Positions 5,039 through 63,380 of a stretch of DNA of 64,000 nt are shown one piece after another. This stretch comes from Vicinamibacteria bacterium (GTDB lineage: Bacteria > Acidobacteriota > Vicinamibacteria > Marinacidobacterales > Marinacidobacteraceae): contig OZ241322.1 in assembly GCA_965199715.1 (NCBI GenBank), forward strand, positions 480,001 through 544,000, read 5' to 3'. A program made the position numbers and the translations under genes. Each line of letters starts with the position of its first letter. The first letter of the stretch is position 1. The notes under the pieces were generated by a model. That model was not told the origin of the DNA and ran no database searches. It saw nothing but the letters and a program-made list of their open reading frames with translations.

Positions 5039-5101
5039 TTGGGGCCGCGGCACGGGCCATTCGCAACGGGCCATCCAGTCTCGCCGCGTCAGTGCATCTT
5101 G

Positions 5102-5518
5102 GTGTTCGATCCCGCGGTCGTCAGGGCGGCCGTCGCCGCGTTTCTTGACGACGGCCCGGCGCGCACCTACTACTTCGATCGGGATTCGTCGCGGATCGTG
5201 AGCGTCTCGGAGGATCAGGAGGACTCCGCGACGCAACGGATCGTCTGGCAGCTCGAGTCGGACACCCGCGGCCGCTTTGTCCCGATCCCCAAGCCCAAGC
5301 TCGAGGAAACCCTCAGCGAACAGGACGAGTTCGTCGAGCGGCTCCCGGAAGGGGATCTCCGCCAGCGGCTGGAGAAGCTCATCGAGGACGACCCGGACGG
5401 GAGCAAGATGGCGGAGGTCGTGGTCCGCAACCGCGAGGCCCGCAACGCTTGGCGGCTGTTTCGCACCGGTCGCGCCGAGACCCGCGCCCGCGCGTTCCTA
5501 GGGAACCTCGACGCCTAG
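5102..5518 (+). CDS. UPF0158-like protein (start approximate)
   Basis: YYFDRDSSRI, RFVPIP, EFVERL, W..FR pattern typical of UPF0158. Confidence 0.6.
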   Translation: MFDPAVVRAAVAAFLDDGPARTYYFDRDSSRIVSVSEDQEDSATQRIVWQLESDTRGRFVPIPKPKLEETLSEQDEFVERLPEGDLRQRLEKLIEDDPDGSKMAEVVVRNREARNAWRLFRTGRAETRARAFLGNLDA

Positions 5519-45717: not shown

Positions 45718-46419
45718 GTGGCGCTTTCGGTCGTGATCCCCACCCTGAACGCGGCGACGACCATCGGGAGCGCGCTCGACTCGGTGCCCGGGAGCGCCGA
45801 AGTCGTGGTGGTGGACGGTGGGAGCGGCGACCGCACCCGGGAAGTCGCCGCCGCACGCGGGGTTCGAGTGCTGCGGGCCGAAGCCGGTCGCGCCCAGCAA
45901 ATGAACCGTGGCGCCGAGGCGGCTTCGGGCGACGCACTGCTCTTCCTTCACGCCGACTGTCGCCTTCCCGAGGATGCCGGGGCCGCAGTCGAGCGGGCGC
46001 TCCGGGACCCCGGCTGCGCCGGAGGCTGGTTCCCGCTGCGGGTGCTGCCGGAGACGTGGATCATGCGCCGCGCCGCGAACGGCTCGAACCGCCGCGCCCG
46101 GCTCCTCGCCCTGCCCTACGGGGATCAGGCGATCTTCGCCCGAGCGTCGGCCTTCCGGGCGGCCGGGGGCTTCCCGGAAGACCCGATCATGGAGGACGCC
46201 GGCCTCGCCCGCCGCCTGCGCCGCATCGGGCGGCTCGCCGAAGCGCCTTCGCCGGTAGTCACCGGCCCAGGTCACTGGTCGCGGCGCGGCCCCGTGCTTG
46301 CCGGGCTCATCGACCAGATGGTTCTGGCCGCCTGGCTCCTCGGCGTCCCGCCAAAGCGGATCGCCCCCGCGTACTACTCGCTGACGCGCCCGAAGAGCCG
46401 CGACCCGGCCATGCCCTGA
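45718..46419 (+). CDS. TIGR04283 family GT2 glycosyltransferase
   Basis: [37 protein letters not shown]. Confidence 0.9.
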
Positions 46420-48653
46420 GCCTCCACCGCGGCGATCGCGATGACGTGGACGATCTCGTCCACGTCCGAGCCTCGCTGGAGGACGTGCACCGGCCGCCGC
46501 AGCCCGGTGAGGATCGGCCCCACCGCCTCTGCACCGCCGAGGCGCTGGAGCAGCTTGTAGGCGACGTTCCCGGCTTCGAGACTCGGGAAGACGAGTACGT
46601 TGGCGGCCCGGTCAAGCTGCGAGAACGAGAACGTCCCGAGCAACTCGTCCACGACCGCAGTGTCCGCCTGCATCTCGCCGTCCACAATCAGATCCGGCTC
46701 GCGCTCATGGAGGATCTCGACCGCTCGCCGCACCTTGTTCGAGCGCGGATGGGGTGCGCTCCCGAAGTTCGAGAACGAGAGCATCGCCACCCGCGGCTCG
46801 ACGTGGAAACGCCGCGCCACCTCGGCCGCCTGAACGGCGATGTCGGCGAGCTCTTCCGCCGTCGGGTCGATGTTCACGGTGGCGTCGGCGATGAACTTGA
46901 TGTCGTGCTCGAAGACCAGCATGTACACGCCGGCGACCTTCCGCACGTCCTCGCGCTTGCCGACGATCTGGAGCGCGGGCCGGATCGTGTCCGGATAGGA
47001 CTGCGCCACTCCGGCCACCATGCTGTCGGCGTCGCCACGATGGACCATCATCGCGCCGAAGACGGTCGGATTGCGCATCAGCTCGTGCGCCTTGCCCGTG
47101 TCCACCCCGCGCCGCTCGCGCAGCTTCAGCAGGACGCCCGCGTACTGGTCAAGCCGGTCGGAGCGATCCACGTCCACGACTTCGGCACCGCTGAGATCGA
47201 CGCCCAGTTCCGCCGTCCGCCGGGCGATCACGTCGCTCCGGCCGAGCAGCATCGGGCGGGCAATCCGCTCGTCCAGCACCCGCTGCGCGGCGCGGAGGAT
47301 GCTCGGGTGCTCGCCTTCGGGAAGCACGACCGACCGGACCGACTCGCGGGCGCGCACGGCGACGCGCGACATGACCTCGCGCTCGAGTCCCAGCCGGGCC
47401 TCGAGGCTCGCCCGGTAGTCGTCGAGGTCGAAGTCGGGATTCCGGGCGACGCCGCTCTTGATGCCAGCCGCGGCGACCGCCGGAGCCTCCCACAGGAGCA
47501 CCCGGGAGTCGAAGGGCGACGGGATCAGGTACTCGGGTCCGAACTGCATCCGCTCCTTGCCGTGGGCGCGGATGACCGAGTCGGGCACGTCCTCCTTGGT
47601 GAGGGCGGCGAGCGCCCGGGCGGCGGCGAGCTTCATCTCCATGTTGATGGCGCGGGCCCGCACGTCGAGCGCGCCCCGGAAGATGAAGGGGAAGCCGAGG
47701 ACGTTGTTCACCTGGTTCGGGTAGTCGGACCGGCCGGTGGCCATGAAGACGTCCTGGCGGGCGTCCATGGCGTCCTCCCAGGTGATCTCCGGATCCGGAT
47801 TGGCCATCGCCATGACCAGCGGGCGGTCGTTCATGGAGACGACCATCTCCTTCGAGACCGCGTCCTTGACCGACAGCCCCATGAACACGTCGGCCCCGCG
47901 CATCGCGTCGTCCAGCGTGCGCATCGAGGTGTCGAGGGCGTACCGCTGCTTGAACTCGTTCATGCCCGACGAGCGGCCGGCGTAGATGACCCCTCTGGAG
48001 TCGCACATGACCACGTGCTCGTGGCGCACGCCCAGTTGCTCGGCGAGCTCGGCGCAGGCGATTCCGGCGGCCCCCGCCCCGTTGATGACGACGCGGACGT
48101 CGGCGGGATCCTTGCCGGTGAGCTCCAGCCAGCTCAGGAACGCCGCGCCGGAGATGATCGCGGTGCCGTGCTGGTCGTCGTGGAAGACCGGGATGTCCAT
48201 TTCGGCGCAGAGGCGCGATTCGACGTGGAAGCAGTCGGGGGCCTTGATGTCCTCCAGATTGATGCCGCCGAACGTCGGCTCGAGCGCCTTGACCACCTCG
48301 CAGACCTGATCGGGATTGGTGACGTTGAGCTCGATGTCGAACACGTCGATGTCGGCGAACCGCTTGAAGAGAACGCCCTTCCCCTCCATCACCGGCTTGG
48401 CGGCGAGCGGCCCGATGTTCCCGAGCCCGAGGACGGCCGACCCCGTGCTCACGACGGCGACGAGATTTCCCTTGGCGGTGTAGTCGAAGACCCGCTCGGG
48501 ATCCTTGTGGATCTCGCGGCACGGCTCGGCCACGCCGGGGCTGTAGGCGAGCGAGAGATCGCGCTGGGTGCTCGTGGGCTTGGTGGGCCGGACCTCCACC
48601 TTCCCCGGACGGCGGCCGAGGTGGTAATCGAGTGCGTCCTGCTTGCGGATCAA
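46374..48653 (-). CDS. maeB: NADP-dependent malic enzyme with phosphotransacetylase-like domain
   Basis: [47 protein letters not shown]. Confidence 0.97.
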
Positions 48654-48791
48654 GGGATTCCCTCCTCGGGACCGATCCGGCTGCGCTCCGCCAGAACGGG
48701 GCCGCGGCGAGCCGGTGAGGATCTGCCCGCCCCGCGGGGCCGGTCGAATGTGGCCGGAAGTCTAATGGCGCGGGCGTGGCATCATCGGGCG

Positions 48792-50309
48792 ATGGGCGAC
48801 GGCGGAGCGACGATCGGCTACGAGGCCGAGCTCTGGGCGATGGCGGAAGAGTTCCGCGTCTCCATGGAACCGGCCGAGTACAAGCACGTCGTCCTCGGGT
48901 TGATCTTCCTGAAGTACATCTCCGACGCGTTCGAGGAGCGCCGCGCCGCGTTGGCCGCCGAGCACGGCGACGTGGTGGCCGAGGATCGCGACGAGTATCT
49001 GGCCGACAACGTCTTGTGGGTCCCATCCGCGGCTCGGTGGGCGAAGCTCAAGGCCGCGGCGCGGCAGCCTGGGATCGGCGAGACCGTGGATCGAGCCATG
49101 GACGCGATCGAGCGGCAGAACCCGAAGCTCAAGGACGTGTTGCCAAAGGGTTACGCGCGCCCTGCCCTCAGCAAGAAGGACCTCGGAGGCCCTATCGACA
49201 TCGTCAGCAACATCCGGGTGGGGGACGGCGACGCCCGCTCCCGGGACGTGCTCGGCCGCATTTACGAGTACTTCCTTTCCCGCTTCGCGAGCGCCGAGGG
49301 AAAGAAGGGCGGCGAGTTCTACACGCCCCGTTGCATCGTCCGGCTGCTGGTCAAGATGCTGGAGCCCTACTCGGGGCGGGTTTACGACCCCTGCCGTGGC
49401 TCGGCGGGCATGTTCGTGCAGTCGGTTGAGTTCCTGCGGGCGCACTCCCGAGGCGACGGCGCCGCCATCAGCACCTATGGGCAGGAGTCCAAACACACGA
49501 CGTGGCGGCTCGCGAACATGAACCTCGCCATTCGGGGAATCGAAGGCCAGATCGCCCACGGCGACAGTTTCGGCAACGACCGACATCCCGACCTGAAGGC
49601 CGACTGCATCCTCGCCAACCCGCCGTTCAACCTCAAGAAATGGGGCGGCGACCAACTGACCGAGGACCAGCGGTGGCAGTGGGGAGTCCCGCCCAAGGGC
49701 AACGCCAACTTCGCGTGGGTCCAGCACATGGTCCACCATCTCGCCCCCGGCGGCACGGCGGGATTCGTGCTGGCGAACGGCTCCATGTCATCGGCGCAGT
49801 CGGGCGAGGGCGAGATCCGGAAAACGCTGATCGAGGCGGGTCTCGTGGAATGCATGGTGGCGCTGCCGGGGCAACTGTTCTACTCGACGCAGATCCCGGC
49901 GTGCCTCTGGTTCGTGGCGCGGGACCGCCCCCGATCCGGCGAGGTTCTCTTCATCGACGCCCGCAAGCTGGGCCGCATGGTGGACCGCACCCACCGGGAG
50001 TTGACCGACGACGAGATCGCCCGAATCGCAGCGACCTACCGAGCGTGGAGAAAGGGCGACAGCGCCTACGAGGACGAGCCGGGCTTCTGCCGCAGCGCCC
50101 CACTCGACGAGGTGCGCAAGCACGACCACGTGCTGACGCCCGGCCGGTACGTCGGGGCTCCGCCGCCAGAGGACGACGGCGAGCCGTTCGACGAGAAGAT
50201 GCGCCGGCTCGTCGGCGAGCTCAAGGAGCAGCGGGCCGAGGCGGCGAGGCTGGATCAGGCGATCGAGCGGAACCTCCGGGCGCTGGACTTCTGGGACGGC
50301 CCGGCGTGA
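48792..50309 (+). CDS. hsdM: Type I restriction-modification methyltransferase subunit (orphan, possibly decaying)
   Basis: [44 protein letters not shown]; no hsdS/hsdR nearby. Confidence 0.9.
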
Positions 50310-50335
50310 CGTTTGGATTGCGCTTTCGTCCCTAG

Positions 50336-50443
50336 AGTGCGACACAACGCTCGTTGCATGGCGCAAGTGCGAGACAATCCAGTTTGCGTCGCACTTATAC
50401 GCTCAAAACGCAATATAATCGCCGTTGCGTTGCAAGAGTGCGA
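50336..50443 (+). promoter_or_regulatory. Putative promoter/operator region upstream of fic
   Basis: TATAAT at 50414-50419; AGTGCGA at 50336, 50366 and 50437, inverted at 50389-50395. Confidence 0.45.
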
Positions 50444-50467
50444 GATAACGATCAGCCGCGCCCCCTG

Positions 50468-51580
50468 ATGGTGCCGGTCACCTACCAGACGGGCCGGTTC
50501 CCCCCTGACCACCGCCTCGATTGGCCGCGTCTGGTCCCGCTTCTCGGCCCTGCCGTCGCCGCCGTCGCCCGGTATGACGGCATCATCGCGGCCATCCCCA
50601 ATCCGGACGTGTTGCTCGCCCCGCTCGGGCTGCAGGAGGCCGTGCTGTCCTCCCGCATCGAGGGAACGCAGGCGACGCTCGGCGACGTGCTCGAGTACGA
50701 AGCCGGGCACGAGCCGGAATCCCCGACCCGAAAGCTGGACGTACAGGAGGTCCTGAACTACCACCTCGCGATGCAGCGGGCGGTGACCCTGCTGAAGGAC
50801 CTTCCGCTCTCCCAACGCGTCCTTCGCGAGACGCACCGAGTCCTGCTGGACGGAGTGCGCGGCGACGGCAAGGCGCCCGGGGAATACCGAGTCGTTCCGA
50901 ACTGGATCGGCCCACCGGGGCGCTCCATCGAGGAGGCGACGTTCGTGCCGATCGATGCCGGAGCGCTGCCGGACGCGATGAGCGCTTGGGAGGCTTACAT
51001 GCATTCGAACGCTCCCGATCGTTTGGTGCAGATGGCCATCCTGCACGCCGAGTTCGAGGCGCTCCACCCCTTCCTTGACGGCAATGGACGGCTCGGACGG
51101 ATGCTGATTCCCCTGTTCCTGTGGCGGCGCGGACTGATCGGCGCACCCTCGTTCTACATCAGCGCGTGGCTCGAGGCCCGCCGCAACGACTACTACGAGA
51201 GACTGCTGGCGGTGTCGCGAGACGACGACTGGACGGGCTGGTGCGAGTTTTTCCTGGAGGGAGTGCGGGCGCAGGCGGAGGACAACCTGGCTCGGGCCGA
51301 GAGCATCCTCACGCTCTACGAAGGGATGAAGCGCCGCATGGCCGAGCTGACCCGATCGCGCTACGCGATCCACGCGCTTGACTGGATCTTCCGCTACCCC
51401 ATCTTTCGGAGCACCCGCTTCGTCGCCGAAGCCGGCATCCCGTCGCACTCGGCCTGGCGCATCCTGAAGACCCTGCGTTCGGCGGGCGTCGTCCGCACGC
51501 TGGTCGCCGGAAGCGGACGGCGTTCGCCCATCCTGGATTTTCCAGAGCTCAGGCGGATCGCCGAGGGGAACCGACCATGA
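50468..51580 (+). CDS. Fic family protein (N-terminal inhibitory motif, Fic core, C-terminal wHTH-like region)
   Basis: SSRIEGT and intact HPFLDGNGRLGR. Confidence 0.93.
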   Translation: MVPVTYQTGRFPPDHRLDWPRLVPLLGPAVAAVARYDGIIAAIPNPDVLLAPLGLQEAVLSSRIEGTQATLGDVLEYEAGHEPESPTRKLDVQEVLNYHLAMQRAVTLLKDLPLSQRVLRETHRVLLDGVRGDGKAPGEYRVVPNWIGPPGRSIEEATFVPIDAGALPDAMSAWEAYMHSNAPDRLVQMAILHAEFEALHPFLDGNGRLGRMLIPLFLWRRGLIGAPSFYISAWLEARRNDYYERLLAVSRDDDWTGWCEFFLEGVRAQAEDNLARAESILTLYEGMKRRMAELTRSRYAIHALDWIFRYPIFRSTRFVAEAGIPSHSAWRILKTLRSAGVVRTLVAGSGRRSPILDFPELRRIAEGNRP

Positions 51581-52718
51581 GACCCACCGACGCCCACATC
51601 GAGCGCCAGTTGCGGCTGGGAGAGGGACAACCGTTGGGCGTTCCACCGCAGCGCATGCGCCAGCGATCGCCTCGCCGACGAGATCGGCGCGTTCGCCAAT
51701 GAGGACGGCGGCGTACTGCTGTGCGGCGTCACCGACTGCGGCGAGGTCGTCGGAATGTCCCGCGGGCAACTGGATTCCCTCGAGCGTCAAATGGTCGAGA
51801 TCGGCGAGAACTCGATCCGACCGCCGCTCCCGCTCTTCATCACGCGGCGGGAACTCCACCCCGGCAAGGCGTTCCTCGTGGTCGAGGTCCCACGGGGACG
51901 CACGCTCCACGAGAGCCCCGGCGGCGCGTTTCGGCGAACGGGTAGCTCGAAGCGGCGCATGGGCTCGGACGAACGGCTCCGCTTGGCGCAGCGCCGGGCT
52001 AAGGCGCGTTTCGCGTGGTTCGACCGTCAGCCCGTGCCCAGCACGGGGTTCCGCACGCTGGAGGAGGAGCTGTGGCGGCCCCTGATCGGCGATGAGGGAG
52101 CGACGAATCCCGAAGACGCCCTGCGGCAGTTAAACCTGGTGACCGAGGACGAAGCTGGAGCCTCGCGGGCCTCCGTCGCCGGAGTGTTGCTCTGCGCCGA
52201 GAAGCCCCACACATGGCTGACGCAAGCCCGGATCGTCGCCACCTGCTACGAAGGCGGCGATCGCGCCTCGCGCCAGTTGGACGCGTTTGAGATCACCGGC
52301 CCGCTGCCCTGTCAGATCAGTGACGGGATGCACTTCGTGCGCCGCAACGTGCGCATGGACCCGCCGCAGTACAGCCTGCGAGCCGTATTCGAGGCCGTCG
52401 TGAACGCGGTGGCGCACCGGGACTACTCCATCAAGGAGCGCCGCATTCGCCTCTCCATGTTTCGTGATCGTCTGGAGCTCAGTTCTCCGGGCGAAATGCC
52501 CGAACGGCCAGCGACGCGCAACGAGACTCTGACCTCGATCCTCCGTCGCACGGCGGTCGGCAGCGTCCACGGCGCGGGAGAGGCGTTCCTTCATGGGCGT
52601 CAGCGGCGACGGCATTCGCATCATCCAGCGGGAGACCGCCGATCTCTCCGGCCAGGAGGTGCGGTATCGCCTCGTGGACGGCAGGGAACTGCAAGTGACG
52701 CTGCCCGCCTCGACATGA
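51577..52718 (+). pseudogene. AlbA_2/Schlafen + HATPase_c_4 (RecG C-terminal-like) gene, frameshifted
   Basis: ATG 51577; frame change near 51624 (LRLGE/DNRW...AFANEDGGVLLCGVTD); EAVVNAVAHRDYS; second frame change near 52590 restoring GDGIRIIQRE...LPAST*. Confidence 0.8.
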
Positions 52719-52891
52719 CCGCACCCCTCCACTACCGCCCGGGCGCCTTCCCGCCGGATGACCGCATCGACTGGGGGCGCCTCGTTCCGCTGCTCGGCCC
52801 CACCGCCGCAGCCATCGGCCGCTACGACGGCTTCCTGAGTGCCTGTCCGAACCCTGAGGTACTCCGAGAAGCCGTCGCCGAGTCGGAGATC
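52715..52891 (+). pseudogene. Truncated N-terminal fragment of a second Fic gene
   Basis: FPPDDRIDWGRLVPLLGPTAAAIGRYDG aligns with the N-terminus of the 50468 Fic. Confidence 0.8.
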
Positions 52892-53029
52892 CACCGCTTC
52901 GGGACCTGGTACAAGTGCCTTTGGAAGGCGACGCGCACGAAAATCCGTAACGCTGGGGTACCAACCCGCCGACCGATCCACCTTGATCGACCTAATGGAT
53001 CGCAGCGCGTACGACTTGGTACGGGTTGG

Positions 53030-53713
53030 ATGACCGCCGCCACCCAGGCCCGCCCACGAGCATTCGAGGAAGTGGAGCGGCTCCCACGCTGCCCGGACGT
53101 CGTCCACGCCGCACGAAAGCGGGGCGTTCGCGAAGTCGTCCACTTCACGACCATCAGCGGCCTCATCGGGATTCTGGCGAAGGGCGCCGTGCTGAGCCGT
53201 GCACGGCTGGAGGGAGACAAGTACCTTGAGTACGTGTGTCGACCGAACGCACCCGTTCGGAAGGACGAGGCGTGGCTGGACTACGTGAGCCTTTCCGTCA
53301 GTCGCATCAACGACTGGATGTTCGAGCACTCCGAGCGCTGGCAGGTCAAGAATGACAACCCGTGGGTGGTCCTGGCCTTCGATCCGGCGCTCCTCGGCGA
53401 CCCCGGTGTGGTGTTTGCGACCACCAACAACATCTACCCGGCGTGCCGCCGGGCCGAAGGCCTCGTCGGATTCGAGGGCCTGTTCGCGGAGTCGGTCGCC
53501 GGGCGGTACGGAAAACTCCACGACCGCGAGGAGAAGCCCCGAAGCTGGCCGACGGACCGGCAGGCTGAGGTGCTCTATCCGGGTCAGGTATCGTGCCGGT
53601 ATCTCCTCCGCGTTGACGTGCAGCGGGAGGAGACGCTGGATGTCGTTGCTGGTCTCGAGGGCACTCTACGAGTGAGCGTGCCGGTTCGACATACACCGGC
53701 GGTATTCCAATGA
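53030..53713 (+). CDS. darT: DarT-family (DUF4433) DNA ADP-ribosyltransferase
   Basis: VVHFTT...IL..G.VLSR, R...LDYVSLS, VVFATTN, DRQAEVL with catalytic Glu. Confidence 0.82.
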   Translation: MTAATQARPRAFEEVERLPRCPDVVHAARKRGVREVVHFTTISGLIGILAKGAVLSRARLEGDKYLEYVCRPNAPVRKDEAWLDYVSLSVSRINDWMFEHSERWQVKNDNPWVVLAFDPALLGDPGVVFATTNNIYPACRRAEGLVGFEGLFAESVAGRYGKLHDREEKPRSWPTDRQAEVLYPGQVSCRYLLRVDVQREETLDVVAGLEGTLRVSVPVRHTPAVFQ

Positions 53714-55254
53714 CCAGCAAGGGTTTGTTCGTGAGACACAAAGCCCCGACACTTGCTGGACGCGACGTGGGCGGCGTGCTGGGCCGCGTCGAGCGGTCGG
53801 CCCTCTGGGCCGCCTACGGCGACGCCCTCGGTTGGATCAGCGAACTGACGAACGCCGCTGGCCTGCGGAAACGCACCGGCGGAGCGCCGCTCGACGAACC
53901 GATCGCTTGGGAGCGTCACATCGGCGGCCGATCGGGGGTCACCGTTCCCCTTCCCCGAGGCTGCTACTCGGACGACACGCAGTTGCGCCTCGCCACGGGG
54001 CGAGCGATCCGACCCGAGGGTTTCGACGTCGAGGCATTCGCGAAGGTCGAGCTTCCCGTGTGGCTTGGTTACGGACTCGGCGGTGGGAAATCCACAAGCG
54101 CGGCCGCCGCCCAGCTCACGAGACGCAATCCGGCGTGGTGGAGCAACCGCTTCCGGGGATGGACCCGCTCCGGCGGAAACGGCGCGGCCATGCGCATCCA
54201 GCCACACGTGTGGGCGTCACGCTCTCCGGAGGACCCGGAGTCCTATTTGCCGGATGTCGTACGGAATTCAGTGTGCACCCACTCCCATCCCACCGGGCTT
54301 ATGGGAGCCGTCCTGCATTCGCTTTGCGTGGCCTATTCCACAGCGACCGGCGAGGTACCGTCCCCGAAGCAACTACCGACTCTTCGTGAACAGACGGCGC
54401 GGGTGCCGGGACTCGTCGCCCGAGACGACGAACTGCGCTACTGGCGAGCGGCCTTCCAGCAAGAGGAAAGCCGCTTCGACTCGGCGTGGGCGCGAGCGTG
54501 GGACGAGGTTCAGCAGTCCGTCGAACACGTCGCCGCCTGCCGCAACGGCTCGCAGGGCGTGGACGGTTATGAGGCCATCGTGCAGGCTCTGGGACTGCGC
54601 GAACGAGAGCGCCGGGGCAGCGGAATCCTGACGGCGGTGGCCGCGCTCGGTTTGGCATGGTGCGAGGATCGGCCGGCGGAAGCCATGCGGATCGCGGCGA
54701 ACGCGGTCGGCACCGACACCGACACGATCGCGTCCATGGCGGGCGCGATTCTCGGGGCCACGGCGGACGCCGACCCGCCGTTGGAGGTGCTTGACGGCCC
54801 GCTGATCCGTTCCGAGGCGGTCCGTCTGGCAAGGATCGGGGAGGGTGAGAGTCCCGCGAGTCATCCCTACCCCGACCTCCTGCATTGGACGGCCCCCAAG
54901 CACCGAGCCGAGGCGTTGGAGCGGACGAAGGACGGAGGGCTCCGTGTGCTTGGCCTCGGTCCCGCCCGGCGGCTGGAGGGAAACCCGCCCTTCGTCAACG
55001 GCACGTTCCAGTGGCAGTGGATCCGGCTGGACTTCGGGCAGACGCTCCTCATCAAGACCCGTAAGGGGGAGCCCGAGGCCCCCCAAGAGAAGAGGGGCCT
55101 GCAGGAGACGATCGCCTACGTCTCGGAACATATTGACGACGATCGGATCGTCGGACAGGCGCTGCGCAAGGTCGCGCGCAAGGGCACCCACGGCGGGATT
55201 GCGGGCTTCAGCTCGGCGCTGATCGACCTGCTGCGCGCTCACAAACCGGACTGA
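53710..55254 (+). CDS. ADP-ribosylglycohydrolase (ARH/DraG family) with C-terminal extension
   Basis: ATGA overlap with darT; GDALG, SDDTQ, GNGAAMR, THSH, DTDTIASMAGAILGA. Confidence 0.9.
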   Translation: MTSKGLFVRHKAPTLAGRDVGGVLGRVERSALWAAYGDALGWISELTNAAGLRKRTGGAPLDEPIAWERHIGGRSGVTVPLPRGCYSDDTQLRLATGRAIRPEGFDVEAFAKVELPVWLGYGLGGGKSTSAAAAQLTRRNPAWWSNRFRGWTRSGGNGAAMRIQPHVWASRSPEDPESYLPDVVRNSVCTHSHPTGLMGAVLHSLCVAYSTATGEVPSPKQLPTLREQTARVPGLVARDDELRYWRAAFQQEESRFDSAWARAWDEVQQSVEHVAACRNGSQGVDGYEAIVQALGLRERERRGSGILTAVAALGLAWCEDRPAEAMRIAANAVGTDTDTIASMAGAILGATADADPPLEVLDGPLIRSEAVRLARIGEGESPASHPYPDLLHWTAPKHRAEALERTKDGGLRVLGLGPARRLEGNPPFVNGTFQWQWIRLDFGQTLLIKTRKGEPEAPQEKRGLQETIAYVSEHIDDDRIVGQALRKVARKGTHGGIAGFSSALIDLLRAHKPD

Positions 55255-55257
55255 CCC

Positions 55258-55869
55258 ATGAACCTCATCGTCTTCGGAGCCACCGGCAAGACCGGGAAAC
55301 ACGTCCTCAAGGCCGCGCTCGACCGGGGAGCCGAGGTGACCGCGTTCGCCCGCTCGCCGCAGAAGCTTGACGGATTCGAGGGTGTCCGTATCGCGGAAGG
55401 CGACGTGCTGGACCCGGAGTCGGTCGCGGCGGCGATTCCGGGACACGACGCCGTGATCGTCGCGCTCGGGAGCGTCAACCTGAAGGACGCGACGACGCTC
55501 TCCGCCGGAACCCGGAACGTGCTCGCCGCCATGAACCGCCACGGAGTGCGGCGTCTCGTCGCGCTCTCCGCCGTCGGCGTCGCCGAGAGCTGGGGTCAGC
55601 TTCCGCTGCTGCCCAAGCTGCTGTTCCGAACGATGCTGCGGAACGTCCTCGCCGACCACGAGGCGCAGGAGGCGCTCGTCAGGGACAGCTCGCTCGACTG
55701 GACGATCGTCCGCGCCGCCATCCTGAAGGACGGCCCGGCGACCGGCGAGGTCACCGCCTCGAACACCGGCAAGGTGGGCAATATCCAACGCGCCGACGTG
55801 GCCGCGTTCCTCGTCGCCGCGGCAACCGAGGGGACCTACCGGGGACAGACGATCTCGATCACTTCCTGA
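55258..55869 (+). CDS. NAD(P)H-binding atypical SDR (flavin reductase-like)
   Basis: GATGKTG, LDWTIVR, IQRADVA. Confidence 0.9.
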   Translation: MNLIVFGATGKTGKHVLKAALDRGAEVTAFARSPQKLDGFEGVRIAEGDVLDPESVAAAIPGHDAVIVALGSVNLKDATTLSAGTRNVLAAMNRHGVRRLVALSAVGVAESWGQLPLLPKLLFRTMLRNVLADHEAQEALVRDSSLDWTIVRAAILKDGPATGEVTASNTGKVGNIQRADVAAFLVAAATEGTYRGQTISITS

Positions 55870-56779
55870 CGCCGGGAACCCCGATTCGCTCAAGAATCGT
55901 CCGCAGTTCCTCCCGCTCCGAAGCATCGAGGCTGCGGGTGGGGAGCCGGCTCGGACCGCCTGTTCTTCCCGTGAGCTCCAGCGCCGCGTTCACGACCGGG
56001 CTCTCCGCCCCGGTGCGCCGCCACATCCGGATCCGAAAGGCGTACCACGGCCAGTTCACCCGGGTCAGCAGCTCCTGCGCCGCCCGGTACTCGCCCGCCT
56101 CCATCAGCCGAAAGACCTCCAGATCGTGCTCGGGCCAGATCATCGCGAGATGGGTGATGTATCCCCGGCCCCCGAGCATGTGCGTCAGCGCCTGCGCCCC
56201 GAAGTTGTCGATGACCGCGACGCGATCCCGGAAGCGCTCGATCCCGCGCTGGTACTCGAAGGCCCCCCGCGCCGTGGACCACTTGAGCGCAAGGCACCGG
56301 GGCAACGCGACCAGCCGCTCGACGTCGTCGAGCGTCATGTCGTAGCCCTCCCAGTGCGTGTTGTAGATCATGATCCCGAGAGTGCTCGTGGCCTCATGCA
56401 CCGCCTCGAACACTCGAAAGAGATCATCGGGCGACGGTTCGTAGTAGTAGCCGGGAGCGAGCTGGACGCCCCACGCGCCGATCTCCTCGGCGAAGCGCGC
56501 CATCTCGACCGAGACGCTCGGGTTCGTGTCCTGCGCGCCGACCACCACCGGGACGCGCCCGTCCGCCGCCCGGACGACGGTCTCACTGACCGCTTTCCGC
56601 TCGTCGAGCGAGAGCATCGGGAAGTCGCCTCCGGCGCCGGCGGCGAGCAGCGCCCCGCTTCCCGAGACGATTCCCCGGTCCACGACGTACCGCACGTTCT
56701 CGCGGATCGCGTCGTGGTCCACGCTCAGGTCGTCATGGTAGTGGGTGATGACCGGAATCAGGGGGCCGCAGATCGCCAT
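55859..56779 (-). CDS. DapA/NanA-family class I aldolase
   Basis: GDFPMLSLDERK, GRVPVVVG, IMIYN, Schiff-base Lys in ALKWS. Confidence 0.85.
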   Translation of the reverse strand: MAICGPLIPVITHYHDDLSVDHDAIRENVRYVVDRGIVSGSGALLAAGAGGDFPMLSLDERKAVSETVVRAADGRVPVVVGAQDTNPSVSVEMARFAEEIGAWGVQLAPGYYYEPSPDDLFRVFEAVHEATSTLGIMIYNTHWEGYDMTLDDVERLVALPRCLALKWSTARGAFEYQRGIERFRDRVAVIDNFGAQALTHMLGGRGYITHLAMIWPEHDLEVFRLMEAGEYRAAQELLTRVNWPWYAFRIRMWRRTGAESPVVNAALELTGRTGGPSRLPTRSLDASEREELRTILERIGVPGVRK

Positions 56780-56801
56780 CCCTGTGTTATACCCGAACCC
56801 C

Positions 56802-58283
56802 GTGGCGGCGGTTGACTGGATCGTTCTGGCGGTTTACGCCGGACTGACGCTCTGGCTCGGCTGGTTCTACGGGCGGCGGCAGACCTCGACCCGCGAGTAT
56901 TTCGTCGGGGGCGGGCGCCTCAACCCGCTCGCGGTCGGCGTCTCGCTCTTCGCGACGCTCGTGAGCACGGTCTCGTACCTCTCGGTGCCGGGCGAAATCA
57001 TCGCGAAGGGGCCAGTCACCCTCGCGCAGCTCGTCACGCTTCCCGTGGTGTACGTGGTCGTCGCCTACTGGCTGCTTCCGGCGTTCATGGGGCGCCGGGT
57101 CACGAGCGCCTACGAGCTCCTCGAGGTTCGTCTCGGCGCGGGGGCCCGCCTGCTCGGCGCGTCCATGTTCATCATCCTTAGGGTGGGATGGATGTCGCTC
57201 GTCGTGTACGCGGCGGCGGTGGCCCTGACGGTGATGATCGGCGCCGGCCCCGAAGCGGTGCCGGCGATCGTGCTCGTGACCGCGGCCGTCGCGGTCGCCT
57301 ATACGTCGCTCGGCGGACTTCGCGCCGTCGTCGTGACCGACTGCATCCAGTCCACGTTGCTTCTCAGCGGGGCCCTCGTCGTCATCGGCGTCGTAACCGT
57401 GGAAATGGGCGGTTTCGGGTGGTTCCCGACGACGTGGCAGGCGAACTGGGACACGCAGCCGCTCTTCAGTTGGAATCCGGCGACCCGCGTCACCGCCTTC
57501 GGCGCGGTGATTTCGACGCTCACGTGGTACGCGGCGACCGCCGGAGGCGATCAGGTGGCCATCCAGCGGTTCATGGCGACGACCGACCTGAAGGCCGCCC
57601 GACGCGCCTACGCGACGCAGCTCATCGCCATCACGGTCGTGACGGTGGCGCTCGCGCTCGTCGGGCTCGCGCTCCTCGGCTACTTCGAGGCGTTTCCCGG
57701 GGAGCTGGGCGCGGGCCTTTCGCTCAGTGACGACGGGGACCACGTGTTCCCGTACTTCATCGCCCAACGGCTACCGACCGGGATCGCCGGGCTGGTGGTC
57801 GCCGCCATGTTCGCCGCCGCCATGTCCAGCGTGGACTCGGGGGTGAACTCGATTTCCGCCGTGGTCTTGACCGACTTCGCGCCACGGCTCGGCAAGGGCG
57901 GCGGAGATGACGCGACCAGGCTGCGGCTGGCGCGCTGGATCGCGGTGGGAACCGGCGGCCTCATCGTTCTCGGCAGTTTCCTGATGGCCATCGTCCCCGG
58001 CAACATCACCGAGACGACCTCGAAGACCTCGAACCTGCTCACGACTCCCATCTTCGGGCTCTTCATCTTCGCGATGTTCGTGCGCCGCGTGCGCCCCGTC
58101 GGCGCCTTCGTCGGCACGGCGGCCGGCATCGTCGCGGCTGCGCTCGTCGCGTTCTCGGGTCCGATCTTCGGGTTCGATCCGGTCACCGGAGGCGACCCGG
58201 TGAGTTTCCAGTGGATCGCCCCGATTTCGTTACTGGTCCAGATCGCCGTGGGCTTCCTCGTGAGCCGGCTGTTCGAACGATGA
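56802..58283 (+). CDS. Sodium:solute symporter
   Basis: EYFVGGG, SAYELLEVR, GGLRAVVVTD, DQVAIQR, AAAMSSVDSG. Confidence 0.92.
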   Translation: MAAVDWIVLAVYAGLTLWLGWFYGRRQTSTREYFVGGGRLNPLAVGVSLFATLVSTVSYLSVPGEIIAKGPVTLAQLVTLPVVYVVVAYWLLPAFMGRRVTSAYELLEVRLGAGARLLGASMFIILRVGWMSLVVYAAAVALTVMIGAGPEAVPAIVLVTAAVAVAYTSLGGLRAVVVTDCIQSTLLLSGALVVIGVVTVEMGGFGWFPTTWQANWDTQPLFSWNPATRVTAFGAVISTLTWYAATAGGDQVAIQRFMATTDLKAARRAYATQLIAITVVTVALALVGLALLGYFEAFPGELGAGLSLSDDGDHVFPYFIAQRLPTGIAGLVVAAMFAAAMSSVDSGVNSISAVVLTDFAPRLGKGGGDDATRLRLARWIAVGTGGLIVLGSFLMAIVPGNITETTSKTSNLLTTPIFGLFIFAMFVRRVRPVGAFVGTAAGIVAAALVAFSGPIFGFDPVTGGDPVSFQWIAPISLLVQIAVGFLVSRLFER

Positions 58284-58618
58284 TCCGCACCCTCGCCGCC
58301 GCGCTGCTGCTCGGCTTCCAGCTCTTCATGATCGGGTACGCCCGTTTCGTGCCGTCGCGCTACTTCTGCTGGGCGCCGATGGACTCGCAGAACCTGTATT
58401 CGATCGCGGTCGAGATCGACGGGCACAGCCTCGGCCCGGACGAAATCGAGGCGCGGTACCGCCAGCCGGCCACCGGCGGGAACTGGCAGGCCATCCAGCA
58501 CGCGCTCGACAAGGTGCAGCAGTACGAGGAGACCTACGGAAAGGACGACGACGCCCGTGTCACCGTCACGTTCACCGTGAACGGCGGCCCCGAGGAGACG
58601 TGGTCGTGGCCGCCGTGA
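58280..58618 (+). CDS. Small membrane-anchored hypothetical protein
   Basis: ATGA and GTGA overlaps at both ends; N-terminal TM helix; RYFCWAP. Confidence 0.7.
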   Translation: MIRTLAAALLLGFQLFMIGYARFVPSRYFCWAPMDSQNLYSIAVEIDGHSLGPDEIEARYRQPATGGNWQAIQHALDKVQQYEETYGKDDDARVTVTFTVNGGPEETWSWPP

Positions 58619-59775
58619 CCGCCTCGTGGAACCCGTTCCGCTGCGGCGGCACTCCACTCCCGACGCCGCTCCTGCTCGCGGCCAAGCTGCTGGTCGTCAC
58701 GCTGCTCGCGACCGGGCACGTCGCCACGCTCCCCGATCCCTTCCTGCCCTTCCTCCGCGTGTTCGACCGGATCGGGCACCCCGAAGCGTTCCGGCTCGGG
58801 CTCCAAATCCTGTTCGTCGCCGGCTCGATCGCCGTGCTCTTCAATCGCCGGGTCCGGCTCGCCTCGCTCACGGTGGGCCTGACGATCCTCGTGGGCATCG
58901 CGTCCTCAAGGATCTACTGGGCCAACAACACCTTCTTCGCCGGCGCGGCGCTGACTCTGATCGGACTCCACGCGTCGGGGCGGTCGGTCTGGCTGCTGCG
59001 GGCGCAGGTCGCGCTCATCTACTTCGGGGCCGGGTTCAACAAGATCCTCGATCCCGACTGGCTCTCGGGACAGTTCTTCGAGCACTGGACCGAGAATCTC
59101 GGCCACGACCTCTACATCCGGGCGGCGGCGCTGCTCCCGCCGATGGCGCTCTCAAGGTTCATGTGCTGGGCGACCATCGCCACCGAGCTGAGCCTCTTCA
59201 TCGGGTTCGCGACGCCGCGGCTCCACCCGTATGCGATCTGGCTCGGCGTGCTCTTCCACGCGGCGATGACGCTGTTCACCGGCATCACGTTCGTGCTGTT
59301 CCTGTACGTGGCCCCCATCGCGTATCTGGCGTTCGCCCGGTGGCCGCGCCAGACGACCGAGGTCCTTTACGACGGCGACTGCGGAATCTGCGCGAGGACG
59401 AGGCGCTGGTTCGAGGCGCGGGATTTCGAGGGCGCGTTCCGCTGGACGACGTTCCAGAGCGGAGCCGGCGACCGGTTCGGCATCACACGGGAGGCGCTGC
59501 GGCGGCGGCTCCACATCGTCGTGGACGGAACGCGCATCCACGAAGGCTTCCGGGCGTTCAAGCTGATGCTGCTCTACAACCCGGTCACCTACTTCGTGAT
59601 GCTCGGGGCGTTGCTCGTCCTGCACGACGGACCGGCGGGGATGCGCAGCCTGCTGCTCGTCCTGATGATCGGGTTCTTCTTCCCGCTCTTCGACCCGATC
59701 GGGCAGTGGTTCTACGACCTCGTGGCGCGCAACCGGGGACGGCTCGGCTCGGAGCCGTCCTGCCCGGTGGACTGA
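58615..59775 (+). CDS. HTTM-like membrane domain fused to a DCC (DUF393) domain
   Basis: QVALIYFGAGFNK..DPDWLSG, GVLFH; LYDGDCGIC...YDLVARNR. Confidence 0.75.
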   Translation: MTASWNPFRCGGTPLPTPLLLAAKLLVVTLLATGHVATLPDPFLPFLRVFDRIGHPEAFRLGLQILFVAGSIAVLFNRRVRLASLTVGLTILVGIASSRIYWANNTFFAGAALTLIGLHASGRSVWLLRAQVALIYFGAGFNKILDPDWLSGQFFEHWTENLGHDLYIRAAALLPPMALSRFMCWATIATELSLFIGFATPRLHPYAIWLGVLFHAAMTLFTGITFVLFLYVAPIAYLAFARWPRQTTEVLYDGDCGICARTRRWFEARDFEGAFRWTTFQSGAGDRFGITREALRRRLHIVVDGTRIHEGFRAFKLMLLYNPVTYFVMLGALLVLHDGPAGMRSLLLVLMIGFFFPLFDPIGQWFYDLVARNRGRLGSEPSCPVD

Positions 59776-60152
59776 CCGCGCAGCACCTTCTCGAACACGC
59801 GGTATGCCTGCGCGAGCCAGTCGGCCAAGGCCTCCCAGTTGTCGGGGTTGCGCGTGTCGCACTCGTTGAAATAGTTCGCCCACTTGCTACTCGGCTCTTC
59901 GCCGAAGTGCCGCATGAGCGCCTCGCGATACATAGCGATCCGGCACGTCGCCTTCAAACCTTCCCCTGGCAAACCAATCAGGAAGCAGTTGACCCGATCT
60001 GAGGCCACGGAGTGGCCAATCCGCAGATCGGTACCGGCGACCTCAAAGTGCACGTAACTGCGGGCTGTCTGCTGCACGTCACCCGGGTGAAGCCGAGCGA
60101 TCCGGGTCCAGAACTCACGCCGGAAACCGCTCCAGTCGAATTCGGTAGCCAC
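59712..60152 (-). CDS. DUF4268-like protein
   Basis: REFWT start and NPDNWEALADWL...FE end; GTG 2 nt after the upstream stop. Confidence 0.6.
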   Translation of the reverse strand: MATEFDWSGFRREFWTRIARLHPGDVQQTARSYVHFEVAGTDLRIGHSVASDRVNCFLIGLPGEGLKATCRIAMYREALMRHFGEEPSSKWANYFNECDTRNPDNWEALADWLAQAYRVFEKVLRGQSTGQDGSEPSRPRLRATRS

Positions 60153-60154
60153 GC

Positions 60155-62170
60155 TCAGCGCCCGCCGTCGTCAGCCACCATCTCCCCGGAGTGCCGCCCG
60201 AACCACGCCAGAATCCGGTGCGTGACGTCCATCAGGAACTTCGGCTCCCGGGGGCCGTGCGGCGTGCGCGGGTACACGACCATCTCGGTCGGAACCCCGA
60301 GCCGGTCCAGCGCCCGGTAGAACTCCTGCCCTTGGGTGAACGGCACCCGCAGGTCCTCGGCGCCGTGGATCACCTGCGTCGGGGTCGTCACCTCGGCGAT
60401 CCGGTAGATCGCCGAGTGCGCCTCGTACACCTCGTAGTCCTCCCAGAACTCGCCGCCCATGTGCCCGGCGAGGTAGTCCTGGATGTCCGTGGTCGTGACC
60501 ATGCTGACCAGATTCGGAAGCCCGGCGCCCATGCTGGCCGCGACGAACCGGTCCGTCCGGGTCACCGCGAACGAGGTCATGTATCCCCCGTAGCTCCACC
60601 CCATGATGAACAGCCGCTTGGGATCGGCGATCCCCCGCTCGATCACGAGATCCACGCCCGCCATCAGGTCGTCCATGTCCTTGAAACCCCAGTCCATGAA
60701 GTTCGCGTAGCGGAAGTCCTTCCCGTATCCGGTGGAGCCTCTGGGGTTCGGCCGCAGGACCGCGTAGCCCTCCTGCGCGAACGTCTGCAGCATGTAGATG
60801 GACGGACCGCCGGTGAAGGTCTCCGAATAGACGCCGGCAGGCCCGCCGTGGACGTTGAGCACGAGCGGAACCCGCCGCCCCTCCTCGTAACCCACCGGGA
60901 GGGTCAGTAGCCCGTCGATCTCCAGTCCGTCGCCGGAGTCCCACGTGAGGACCGACGTCTCGCCCATCGCCGGGCGGGGCACGTCCCGGTGCAGGTCCGT
61001 CAGCCGCTGCGGTTCGAACGCCGCCGCCGGGCCGCCGCCATCCGCGACCGCCGCCGTGAACACGTCCCACGGCGTGTCCGGGGTCTGGTGGGTGAACGCC
61101 ATCACGTCCGCTCCCGCCGCGATCGAGTGCGCACCGAAGACGCCGGCTCCGGGAGTCATCTCCACGAGCGCGCCACCGTCCGCCGGGAGCGCGAAGAGCC
61201 CCCGACTGGTGCGGTCGGCCTCGCTGACGTACACGAACGACCCGTCCCGGGACCAGCCCACGATCCCGGGACTGCGGTCGCGGGTCTCCGCCAGCTTGAC
61301 CCGCTCGCCGCCCATGACCGGCATGACGTACACGTCGCCGAGCCCGATCGGCTCCGGCTGGTCACCCGTGGAGCGGAACGCGACCGTCGCGCCGTCGGGC
61401 GAAACACGCGGACTGCTCTCGACGCCGTCGCCGCCGTGGAGCGGCGTCACCCGCTCCTCGTACACATGGACCACCGAGAGATCGCCCGAGCGCCGGTTCG
61501 TGTTGATGCGTGGGTCGTCCTGATGCGCGAACACGATGCGGTCGCTGCTCGACCAGTCCCATCCGGTCACGTGGAAGTCGCCCTCGGTGAGCCGGCGGTC
61601 CTCCGCGTCGGGATCCGGACCGTCGGTCACGAGCGCGAGGTACAGATGCCCGTACTTGAAGTCCTGATCGACGAGCTCGACATCCCGCTTCTCCTTGCGG
61701 CGGGCCTCCTCGTCGTCGGTCTCCGGGTCGCGCATCACGTAGCCGACGCTGCCGCCGTCGGGCGAGAAGCGGAACGATCCCGCGCCGTTTTCGGCATGCG
61801 TCACCGGGAACGCCTCGCCGCCCGCGAGCGGGAGCAGCCAGACCTGCGGTTTCCCGTCGCTCGCCCGCAGAAAGCCGAGATACCGGCCGTCGGGCGAGAA
61901 CGCGGGCGACGTGGCGGAACTCTCGCCGGTCGTCCACGCCACCGGCTCGCCTCCCACTGCGGGAACCACGTGGATTTGCGTCCGGTACTCCGACTGCTCG
62001 CCTTCCATGAGGGGAACGGTCACCGTGAACGCGACCATCTCCCCGTCGGGCGAGATCGCCACCGACGAGATGCGGTGGTACTGCATCTGGAGTTCCGGCG
62101 TCCAGCGGTGGTCGTCAGCGAGCGCGAACGCCGACAGCAGCGTCAGAAGAATGAGGAATCGGGCGATCAT
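60155..62170 (-). CDS. S9 family peptidase (acylaminoacyl peptidase-like)
   Basis: Signal peptide, PD40 repeats, HGGP, NPRGSTGYG, GWSYGG, DLRVP, PH. Confidence 0.95.
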   Translation of the reverse strand: MIARFLILLTLLSAFALADDHRWTPELQMQYHRISSVAISPDGEMVAFTVTVPLMEGEQSEYRTQIHVVPAVGGEPVAWTTGESSATSPAFSPDGRYLGFLRASDGKPQVWLLPLAGGEAFPVTHAENGAGSFRFSPDGGSVGYVMRDPETDDEEARRKEKRDVELVDQDFKYGHLYLALVTDGPDPDAEDRRLTEGDFHVTGWDWSSSDRIVFAHQDDPRINTNRRSGDLSVVHVYEERVTPLHGGDGVESSPRVSPDGATVAFRSTGDQPEPIGLGDVYVMPVMGGERVKLAETRDRSPGIVGWSRDGSFVYVSEADRTSRGLFALPADGGALVEMTPGAGVFGAHSIAAGADVMAFTHQTPDTPWDVFTAAVADGGGPAAAFEPQRLTDLHRDVPRPAMGETSVLTWDSGDGLEIDGLLTLPVGYEEGRRVPLVLNVHGGPAGVYSETFTGGPSIYMLQTFAQEGYAVLRPNPRGSTGYGKDFRYANFMDWGFKDMDDLMAGVDLVIERGIADPKRLFIMGWSYGGYMTSFAVTRTDRFVAASMGAGLPNLVSMVTTTDIQDYLAGHMGGEFWEDYEVYEAHSAIYRIAEVTTPTQVIHGAEDLRVPFTQGQEFYRALDRLGVPTEMVVYPRTPHGPREPKFLMDVTHRILAWFGRHSGEMVADDGGR

Positions 62171-62219
62171 GGGTCAAGTATGGCAACTCCGGGCCGTCCG
62201 TTCCCGTAGTCTTTGACCG

Positions 62220-63380
62220 ATGACCGCGCCCGTCAGCACCGGCCTCGAGCGTCTCCCCGACCTCGGCGATCTGCTGCGCGGCCTCCGAGTCGGCCTGATC
62301 GCCAACCCGTCCGCGGTGACCGCCTCGTTCCGGCACGCACGGGAGGTCATCGCCGGGCTGCCGGGAGTGACGCTCGCCGCGCTGTTCGCCCCCGAGCATG
62401 GCTTCGACGCTACCGAACAGGACCTCATCGAGATCGAGGGCGCCGCGGATCGCATCCCGGTGCACAGCCTCTACGGCCCGGTGCGCCGACCGACCGAAAC
62501 GATGCTGGAAGGGCTCGACGCGCTGGTCTTCGACATACAGGACATCGGCTCCCGCTACTACACCTACATCTGGACGATGGCCCACGCCATGGAGGCGTGC
62601 GCGGCCAGCGGACGCCGGATCGTGGTGCTCGACCGCCCGAACCCGATCGGCGGCCGCATGGTCGAGGGGAACGTCATCCGCAAGGACCACCTCTCGTTCG
62701 TCGGGCTCTATCCCCTGCCCAACCGGCACGGCATGACCGTCGGCGAGATCGCGGCGCTGCTGAATCGGCATCACGGCATCGGCGCGGACCTCGTGGTTGT
62801 GGGGTGCGACGGCTGGAGCCGGGAGGCGTGGCTGGACGACGCCGGGCTCCCCTTCGTGCCGCCGTCGCCCAACATGCCGACCCTCGACACCGCTGCGGTG
62901 TATCCGGGCATGTGCCTCGTCGAGGGCACGAATCTCTCCGAGGGGCGGGGCACCACCCGGCCGTTCGAGATGGTCGGGGCCCCGTGGATCCGCGGCGGCG
63001 AGCTCGCCCGCGCCCTTGCTGCCGAGGAACTGCCGGGAGTGGGCTTCCGACCGATCCGGTTCCGCCCGACGTTCCACAAGCACGGAGGCGAGGAATGCGG
63101 CGGCGTCATGCAGCACGTCACCGACCGAGCGACGTACCGGCCGTGGCGGACTGGGATCGCGATGCTCGCCCACATCCGGCGGCTGTGGCCGGCCGAGTTC
63201 GCGTGGCGCCCGCCGCCGTACGAATACGAGCTGGAGCGGCTTCCGATCGACATCCTCGCCGGTTCGCCCCGACTGCGCGAGGGGATCGAGGCGGGCGCCG
63301 ACGTTGCGGAGCTGGCCGGGGACGATGAGGGTCGCGCCGCATTCGACCGGGTGCGCGAGCAGTTCCTGCTCTACCGCTGA
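62220..63380 (+). CDS. DUF1343 / NamZ-like exo-beta-N-acetylmuramidase
   Basis: FAPEHG, SLYG, DIQDIGSRYYTY, DRPNP, HGMTVGE, PSPNMP, SEGRGT. Confidence 0.92.
   Translation: MTAPVSTGLERLPDLGDLLRGLRVGLIANPSAVTASFRHAREVIAGLPGVTLAALFAPEHGFDATEQDLIEIEGAADRIPVHSLYGPVRRPTETMLEGLDALVFDIQDIGSRYYTYIWTMAHAMEACAASGRRIVVLDRPNPIGGRMVEGNVIRKDHLSFVGLYPLPNRHGMTVGEIAALLNRHHGIGADLVVVGCDGWSREAWLDDAGLPFVPPSPNMPTLDTAAVYPGMCLVEGTNLSEGRGTTRPFEMVGAPWIRGGELARALAAEELPGVGFRPIRFRPTFHKHGGEECGGVMQHVTDRATYRPWRTGIAMLAHIRRLWPAEFAWRPPPYEYELERLPIDILAGSPRLREGIEAGADVAELAGDDEGRAAFDRVREQFLLYR

Follow-up and report, generated by a model that had tools for sequence, protein, structure and literature searches.

The stretch of DNA analysed here, hereafter the window, comprises 64,000 nucleotides from a Vicinamibacteria bacterium (contig OZ241322.1, positions 480,001 to 544,000; C1:480001-544000 in genome coordinates). 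It carries two intact, overlapping genes: darT, whose product (P0001) is a predicted ADP-ribosyltransferase of the DarT toxin family, and a darG3-like gene, whose product (P0002) is predicted to adopt the ADP-ribosylglycohydrolase (ARH) fold. The darT stop codon and the start codon of the ARH gene overlap in the sequence ATGA, the ARH open reading frame (ORF) opening 4 bases before darT ends. A first-pass annotation had proposed the two genes as a candidate new toxin-antitoxin or anti-phage system, and its ORF lengths of 227 and 514 amino acids, their coordinates and the ATGA overlap were all reproduced by translation. It had overlooked a 37-codon remnant of a helicase gene directly 5′ of darT, which points to the locus being the residue of a published three-gene system, DarHTG. 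The coordinates of these genes and of their neighbours are collected in Table 1.

Table 1. Features of the darT locus and of the surrounding island, in window coordinates (aa, amino acids).
Feature	Coordinates	Strand	Description
darT	53030..53713	+	Intact; putative 227-aa DarT-family ADP-ribosyltransferase (P0001)
darG3-like gene	53710..55254	+	Intact; predicted 514-aa ARH-fold protein (P0002) with C-terminal extension
ARH domain	53809..54762	+	P0002 residues 34-351, Pfam PF03747
Conserved middle domain	54775..55074	+	P0002 residues 356-455; no fold assigned by sequence
C-terminal domain, ~55 aa	55087..55251	+	P0002 residues ~460-514, from alignment blocks
darH (UvrD-like helicase) remnant	52917..53033	+	Last 37 codons and stop; stop overlaps darT start (ATGA)
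Fic_N-like fragment (pseudogene)	52715..52891	+	Abuts the helicase stub
HATPase_c_4-type ('RecG C-terminal-like') fragment	51755..52600	+	Pfam HATPase_c_4 E 1.1e-5, just under cut-off
Fic/DOC gene	50354..51580	+	Intact; Pfam Fic_N E 2.2e-25, Fic E 1.2e-16
hsdM (type I methylase)	48702..50309	+	Pfam N6_Mtase E 6e-106, HsdM_N
Island, ~11.4 kb	48672..60160		Holds all defence genes and fragments listed; tblastx

The DarT-family assignment of P0001 held in a hidden Markov model search, in which Pfam PF14487 (DarT) matched residues 38-226 with E = 1.1e-21 (77.9 bits, cut-off 22.5) and was covered over profile positions 2-200/201. The PADLOC DarT model gave a weak match (E = 2e-7), and the NCBIfam toxin_DarT model remained far below threshold (13.1 bits, cut-off 150). 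The darT reading frame is open from position 51755, and long open frames are a consequence of the ~70% G+C content of the window; we took the ATG at 53030 as the gene start because it coincides with the aligned start common to the relatives and because the stop codon of the short upstream ORF overlaps it. P0001 shared 59-70% identity with 120 homologues among the matches listed. In an alignment of 38 DarT sequences, the motif residues H38 F39 T40, S56 R57, L88 S89 and A179 E180 occupied invariant or near-invariant columns, and P0001 deviated at 0 of the 45 columns conserved in ≥90% of the other sequences (median 1, range 0-9 for the other members).

The closest solved relative of P0001 by sequence was the E. 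coli C7 DarT1 E152A protein (8baq; E = 8.5e-8), and the same PDB sequence search returned no DarT2 chain at E up to 1. The 8baq alignment paired E180, N133, M97-F98 and R57 of P0001 with E152, N104, M71-F72 and R35 of DarT1, respectively, and R77-x-D79 paired with R52-x-D54 once a gap was shifted. Mutation of E152, N104, M71 or R52 abolishes the toxicity of DarT1, in which N104 is the base-coordinating Asn, a position taken by His in DarT2 (PMC11543638). E180 and N133 were invariant and R77 near-invariant among the 38 DarT sequences, and M97 was kept only in the closer subgroup. Taken together, these alignments indicate that P0001 is a DarT-family enzyme equipped with the catalytic Glu.

The partner gene was likewise correctly recognized at first pass as an ARH: Pfam ADP_ribosyl_GH (PF03747) matched residues 34-351 of P0002 with E = 3e-35 (122.7 bits, cut-off 26.2). 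The NCBIfam models of DraG (E = 1.1e-5, 24.8 bits, cut-off 337) and Tri1 (E = 0.0062, 15.3 bits, cut-off 490) matched far under their cut-offs, PADLOC gave no match for P0002, and the best PDB sequence matches were MJ1187, ARH3, ARH1 and DraG. Residues D38, G41, E45, S87 D88 D89, G155-G158 and D336 T337 D338 were invariant in an alignment of 75 ARH sequences, and the motifs that the annotation had quoted for the two proteins, SDD and DTD of the ARH among them, were all present on invariant or near-invariant family columns. E45, S87-D88-D89 and D336-T337-D338 aligned with their counterparts in MJ1187 and ARH3; we take these acidic motifs to be the metal-binding ones of ARH enzymes. P0002 deviated at 2 of 89 conserved columns (S instead of G at 192, F instead of W at 249), compared to a median of 3 (range 0-9) for the other sequences. 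The product of the darG3-like gene is thus predicted to be an ARH-fold enzyme that retains its metal-binding motifs.

Beyond the Pfam ARH domain, P0002 continues for ~160 residues (352-514), rather than the ~130 originally estimated. Within this region the middle domain was recognizable by the residues Y387 P388, W393, G415-G417, W437 and G443 Q444, conserved in the 75 sequences. No Pfam family matched the C-terminal half of P0002 at E up to 5, and a 28-sequence profile of the middle and C-terminal domains found no credible sequence relative in the PDB. A repeat-like match of the C-terminal half to yeast alpha-factor, with a per-stretch E of 25-86, was taken as chance. With 514 residues, P0002 is shorter than all others among the 75 proteins (526-626 residues), because it is devoid of the variable low-complexity linker that precedes the C-terminal domain in its relatives.

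Upstream of darT, tblastn of the window with two helicases as queries identified only the 3′ end of a UvrD-like helicase gene, darH. Residues 448-484 of the 485-residue helicase P0123 (from locus L007) matched positions 52917-53027 at 65% identity (E = 1.65e-9), inside a 64-residue ORF at 52839-53033, and neither query detected any further part of the helicase in the window. The deletion junction falls between 52891 and 52917, and approximately 92% of the helicase gene appears to have been deleted, from its 5′ end. A repeat search over 48000-56500 gave short imperfect matches only, with no flanking repeats to explain the deletion. Relocation of the helicase elsewhere in the genome was considered and rejected: a search of the genome, which is 93% complete, found no second copy, and the sole other match covered 61 residues in a 677-residue frame.

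Assembly error was rejected as the cause of the truncation. Two contigs reproduce the window with 0 differences, one of 21 kb over 51700-55900 (run X1) and one of 5.8 kb over 51700-54157 (run X6); since the two runs come from two other studies and their contigs cross an identical junction, the truncation must be real. The truncated form also recurred more broadly, with 98-100% of sampled words of the segment 52300-54300 found in runs of several studies (among X1-X8), two of which are labelled sponge metagenome.

The pairing of DarT with an ARH, which the annotation had noted in a single genome, turned out to be conserved, but as part of a larger unit than the two genes it had envisaged. A survey of one genome per species yielded 32 loci with a P0001 relative, distributed over many phyla. 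A P0002 relative was located directly 3′ of DarT in 31 of these loci, the 32nd (L037) being cut by a contig end, and clustering of all locus ORFs revealed a gene of ~470 codons directly 5′ of DarT in 32 of 32. Pfam matches to UvrD_C, UvrD-helicase and AAA_19 (P0123, P0124) identified this upstream gene as a UvrD-like helicase, which was matched over its full length in every genome locus, in a single frame in 27 and with frame changes in five (L009, L019, L025, L033, L037). The same helicase-DarT-ARH order was present in three of three viral contigs, on an E. coli chromosome and on a Salmonella plasmid, so that the ARH was downstream in all five of these viral and annotated loci. Metagenome loci with a near-complete DarT followed suit, with the helicase upstream in 17 of 17 (4 of them contig-cut) and the ARH downstream in 15, the remaining two being cut by a contig end. 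The window aside, the helicase stood upstream of DarT in 54 of 54 judgeable related loci. Thus, the conserved unit is the three-gene order helicase-DarT-ARH. Close relatives of the host rarely carry it: a P0002 homologue was present in none of three same-genus genomes and in two of 60 relatives overall, both with the complete triad and both from the same family (G010 and G020).

Damaged loci were also encountered in the survey. In L019, the DarT match fell into two parts, 5020-5157 (residues 6-51) and 6001-6477 (residues 71-227), which suggested an insertion of ~0.8 kb inside darT; the helicase and the ARH were still present. Four metagenome contigs (L076-L079) held a DarT fragment only, corresponding to family residues ~50-156, without helicase or ARH neighbours, and in L076 this fragment was a 132-residue ORF lacking the HFT and QAE parts. 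Such solitary fragments represent another route by which the system decays.

A DNA search of 5426 complete E. coli genomes gave matches in 21. The one locus inspected (L040) encodes, in a row, a 465-residue '3′-5′ exonuclease' (the helicase), a 221-residue DarT-family protein and a 561-residue ADP-ribosylglycohydrolase family protein. P0001 was 41% identical to the DarT of this triad (E = 6e-50), P0002 38% identical to its ARH (E = 4e-104), and the L007 helicase 40% identical to its helicase (E = 5e-118). By these alignments both window genes are homologous to their E. coli counterparts. The triads of the E. coli chromosome and of the Salmonella plasmid (L041) are flanked by IS21/IS30/IS2-type elements, with a gene for a 1300-residue P-loop NTPase on the opposite strand just 3′ of the triad in both, and the triad appears to move as one block.

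This architecture has recently been described in E. coli as DarHTG, consisting of the helicase DarH, DarT and the ARH-like DarG3 (Liu et al., NAR, April 2026, PMC13069673); a preprint of December 2025 (10.64898/2025.12.08.692795) named the helicase TgaH. According to the available part of that report, DarH is a UvrD-like helicase without a 2B domain, and the predicted structure of DarG3 resembles archaeal and eukaryotic ADP-ribosylglycohydrolases, unlike the macrodomain or NADAR antitoxins. The system protects E. coli against phage, the defence is lost with mutants in DarT's active site or in the helicase ATP site, and no DarG3 mutant could be obtained (PMC13069673). The DarT-ARH pairing is therefore already in print together with phage data, which overturns the earlier view that it lacked an experimental description; the window copy is a degenerate member rather than a new system. 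Because an intact UvrD-like helicase directly upstream of darT is lacking, we classed the locus as a DarHTG remnant, not as a complete member, and as a degraded example rather than the prototype that the annotation had seen in it. Our literature searches found no further description of the DarT-ARH pairing besides Liu et al. The available text of reviews and of the DarT1 paper (PMC11543638) names only macrodomain and NADAR antitoxins for DarT. The terms 'DarG3' and 'DarT3' in a Vibrio cholerae preprint proved to be artefacts of reference superscripts.

We consider it most probable, at roughly 70%, that the locus is a decayed DarHTG in which the DarT/DarG3 pair has been kept as a toxin-antitoxin module while its defence function has been weakened or lost. 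Neither of the two surviving genes exhibits decay, and their conserved positions are intact. In the mechanism that we envisage, DarT would be toxic by transferring ADP-ribose from NAD+ to single-stranded DNA, in the manner of DarT1, its closest relative with a solved structure; a base of such DNA is the likely target in view of the homology with DarT1 and of the DNA helicase that is DarT's obligatory partner elsewhere, and the conserved Asn, in one alignment, suggests guanine as the modified base. DarG3 would neutralise DarT by hydrolysing the adduct at a binuclear-metal ARH site, and may in addition bind DarT by means of its extra C-terminal domains. Where the system is intact, the helicase would be needed to turn the DarT/DarG3 pair into a phage defence, with phage sensing, presentation of single-stranded DNA or release of DarT as candidate roles of DarH. 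After loss of the helicase, the pair could persist by toxin-antitoxin addiction because loss of the antitoxin before loss of the toxin would be lethal, whereas the anti-phage function was probably weakened or lost. The toxin-antitoxin interpretation itself draws solely on the ATGA overlap and the strict co-occurrence of the two genes.

The locus is located on an acquired island. In the same-genus genomes G002 (L056) and G003 (L058), tblastx places homologues of window 60161-63317 after maeB (malic enzyme, window 46374-48653), so that the ~11.4-kb stretch missing between the same flanking genes qualifies as an island. The best matches of P0001 among those listed, with up to 69-70% identity, were in other phyla, which points to horizontal acquisition. 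As the annotation had remarked, the two intact genes stand amid pseudogenes: the HATPase_c_4 fragment, the Fic_N fragment and the helicase stub all lie upstream. The HATPase_c_4 fragment is without its usual N-terminal part and runs into other frames. The Fic_N fragment, 1.1 kb 3′ of the intact Fic/DOC gene, comprises 59 codons with 54% identity to residues 38-102 of the window's own Fic protein (tblastn, E = 1.2e-16) and is what remains of a second Fic gene. The hsdM gene is intact; its coordinate 48702 marks where the translated frame begins, not a proven start codon. HsdS (PF01420) and HsdR (TIGR00348) had no match in the whole 93%-complete genome, which makes hsdM an orphan type I methylase gene, perhaps left by the same deletion that removed the helicase. 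The island, which also holds an NAD_binding_10 gene, a DHDPS-family gene and a sodium:solute symporter gene, looks like a decaying defence island.

Such surroundings also fit an inert relic, in which the deletion took with it the operon's promoter or its translational coupling, DarT is no longer made, and the genes look intact as the event was recent. The helicase stub and neighbouring pseudogenes would then reflect an ongoing decay of the island, in line with an hsdM that has neither HsdS nor HsdR anywhere in the genome and with the solitary DarT fragments L076-L079, which demonstrate the decay of such systems in other organisms. A scan of 51500-55500, uninformative on the whole and perhaps unsuited to the host organism, detected no sigma-70-like promoter and two terminator-like sites against 1.9 expected. 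On the other hand, the conserved columns, at which P0001 deviates in 0 of 45 and P0002 in 2 of 89, argue against a relic, as does the presence of the same intact sequence in contigs from runs of other studies. Two metatranscriptomic libraries contained ~70% of the sampled words of 52300-54300, and RNA-library contigs (X7, X8) covered 52734-53207, 53624-54067, 53667-54217 and most of the ARH gene, thereby including both the darT start and the DarT/ARH overlap. This coverage of both genes hints weakly at transcription and to that extent also speaks against a relic; it is no proof, since the pseudogene stretch is covered as well, and the uncovered parts and depth figures of X7 and X8 were set aside as evidence. 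On balance, an inert relic seems unlikely.

Several of these points bear directly on our preferred interpretation, a retained toxin-antitoxin pair, and weigh against it. Besides the lack of a promoter match in the scan, the X7 and X8 contigs cover the pseudogene stretch too, at similar depth, so DNA carry-over is possible, and the intactness of the two genes could simply mean that the deletion was recent. The E. coli triad used for comparison, from the one genome inspected among 21 with a match, may differ from the published operon Liu-DS3. Both a DNA target for this DarT clade and the action of an ARH on a DNA adduct would hold only by analogy, and the ARH-like enzyme SCO5809 was reported, in the available part of PMC11833690, to fail on guanosine-linked ADP-ribose on RNA.

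The SCO5809 result would favour a switch of the DraT/DraG kind, in which the DarT-like enzyme places ADP-ribose on a side chain such as Arg or Ser in a protein and the ARH takes it off again. The characterised ARH enzymes of Table 1 in PMC12945103 act on protein- or phosphate-linked ADP-ribose, with none listed there for base-linked adducts, and the weak NCBIfam matches of P0002 to DraG and Tri1 tend in the same direction. Against such a switch, the nearest solved relative of P0001 is the DNA-specific DarT1, whose base-coordinating Asn and catalytic residues are kept in P0001, and in other loci DarT has a UvrD-like DNA helicase as its obligatory partner. We regard a protein-directed switch as highly unlikely.

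A further possibility, that DarT and DarG3 alone still sense phage and abort infection in a lineage where the helicase has become dispensable, has a precedent in the canonical DarTG1 and DarTG2 systems, which function as gene pairs (LeRoux et al. 2022, cited in the available parts of PMC13069673 and PMC11543638). It also agrees with the intactness of both genes and with the presence of the truncated form in several runs. However, none of the 54 judgeable loci outside the window was without the helicase, and the helicase ATP-site mutants of E. coli abolish defence (PMC13069673), which renders a working two-gene defence distinctly improbable.

As an alternative source of immunity, we considered a distant macrodomain or NADAR protein as the true antitoxin, with the ARH serving some other role. 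The annotation had rightly reported neither fold near darT: across the genome, Macro was matched only at G000:C1:1743904-1744225, 1.2 Mb from darT, and NADAR only at C1:249158-249486, 0.28 Mb away. The genome thus offers one candidate of each kind, a stand-alone macrodomain gene of ~150 codons (L002) and a NADAR gene (L004), each of which is split over at least two frames, through either pseudogenization or assembly indel errors. In contrast, the ARH gene is joined to darT by the ATGA overlap and co-occurs with it in every judgeable locus. A distant antitoxin is therefore scarcely credible, and in place of the adjacent NADAR or macrodomain antitoxin of canonical DarTG systems darT has a PF03747 neighbour.

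The discovery value of the locus is small, as the pairing has been published and the window copy is broken; its interest lies in being a natural dissection, in which the toxin and ARH genes persist after loss of the helicase, in a form common to several public runs. The survival of this pair without decay suggests that DarT and DarG3 constitute a self-sustaining core, to which the helicase is a defence-specific addition. A more far-reaching version is tentative and, in our estimate, rather doubtful: that the helicase-less pair is active, that the ARH alone keeps DarT in check, that DarH only senses phage or presents the substrate, and that DarG3 removes base-linked ADP-ribose. The DarT clade of the window does retain the Asn with which DarT1 coordinates guanine. 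If true, the locus would be a natural experiment separating antitoxin control by the ARH from DarH, and DarG3 would be the first ARH-fold enzyme to remove base-linked ADP-ribose from DNA. At the level of the family this raises a testable question, namely which atom the DarT clade modifies and whether an ARH fold hydrolyses a base-linked DNA adduct.

Among known systems, the locus most closely resembles DarHTG of E. coli, with which it shares a DarT-family toxin gene followed by an ARH-like antitoxin gene and a remnant of the same helicase at the same place; the best PDB matches of P0002, MJ1187 and ARH3, also fit the description of DarG3 in the available part of the DarHTG report. It differs in that its helicase is reduced to 37 codons, its DarG3 is without the variable linker, and its host is a bacterium of ~70% G+C whose DNA is present in runs labelled sponge metagenome. 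DarTG1, in which NADAR serves as the antitoxin to DarT1 (Schuller et al. 2023, PMC11543638), provides the nearest solved transferase, whose Glu, Asn, Met-Phe and Arg-x-Asp are kept in P0001; the antitoxin candidate of the window has the ARH fold instead of NADAR, and its ancestral operon included a helicase. DarTG2, composed of DarT2 and the macrodomain protein DarG, has a toxin of the same Pfam family and likewise two overlapping genes with the toxin first, but the window has no macrodomain partner, and P0001 carries Asn where DarT2 has His and found no DarT2 among its PDB matches at E up to 1. The DraT/DraG and Tre1/Tri1 pairs, in the latter of which Tri1 acts as an immunity protein, resemble the window locus in that an ARH-fold enzyme undoes the work of a cognate ADP-ribosyltransferase; their transferases belong to other ADP-ribosyltransferase families and modify arginine in proteins, and their DraG and Tri1 models match P0002 only far under cut-off.

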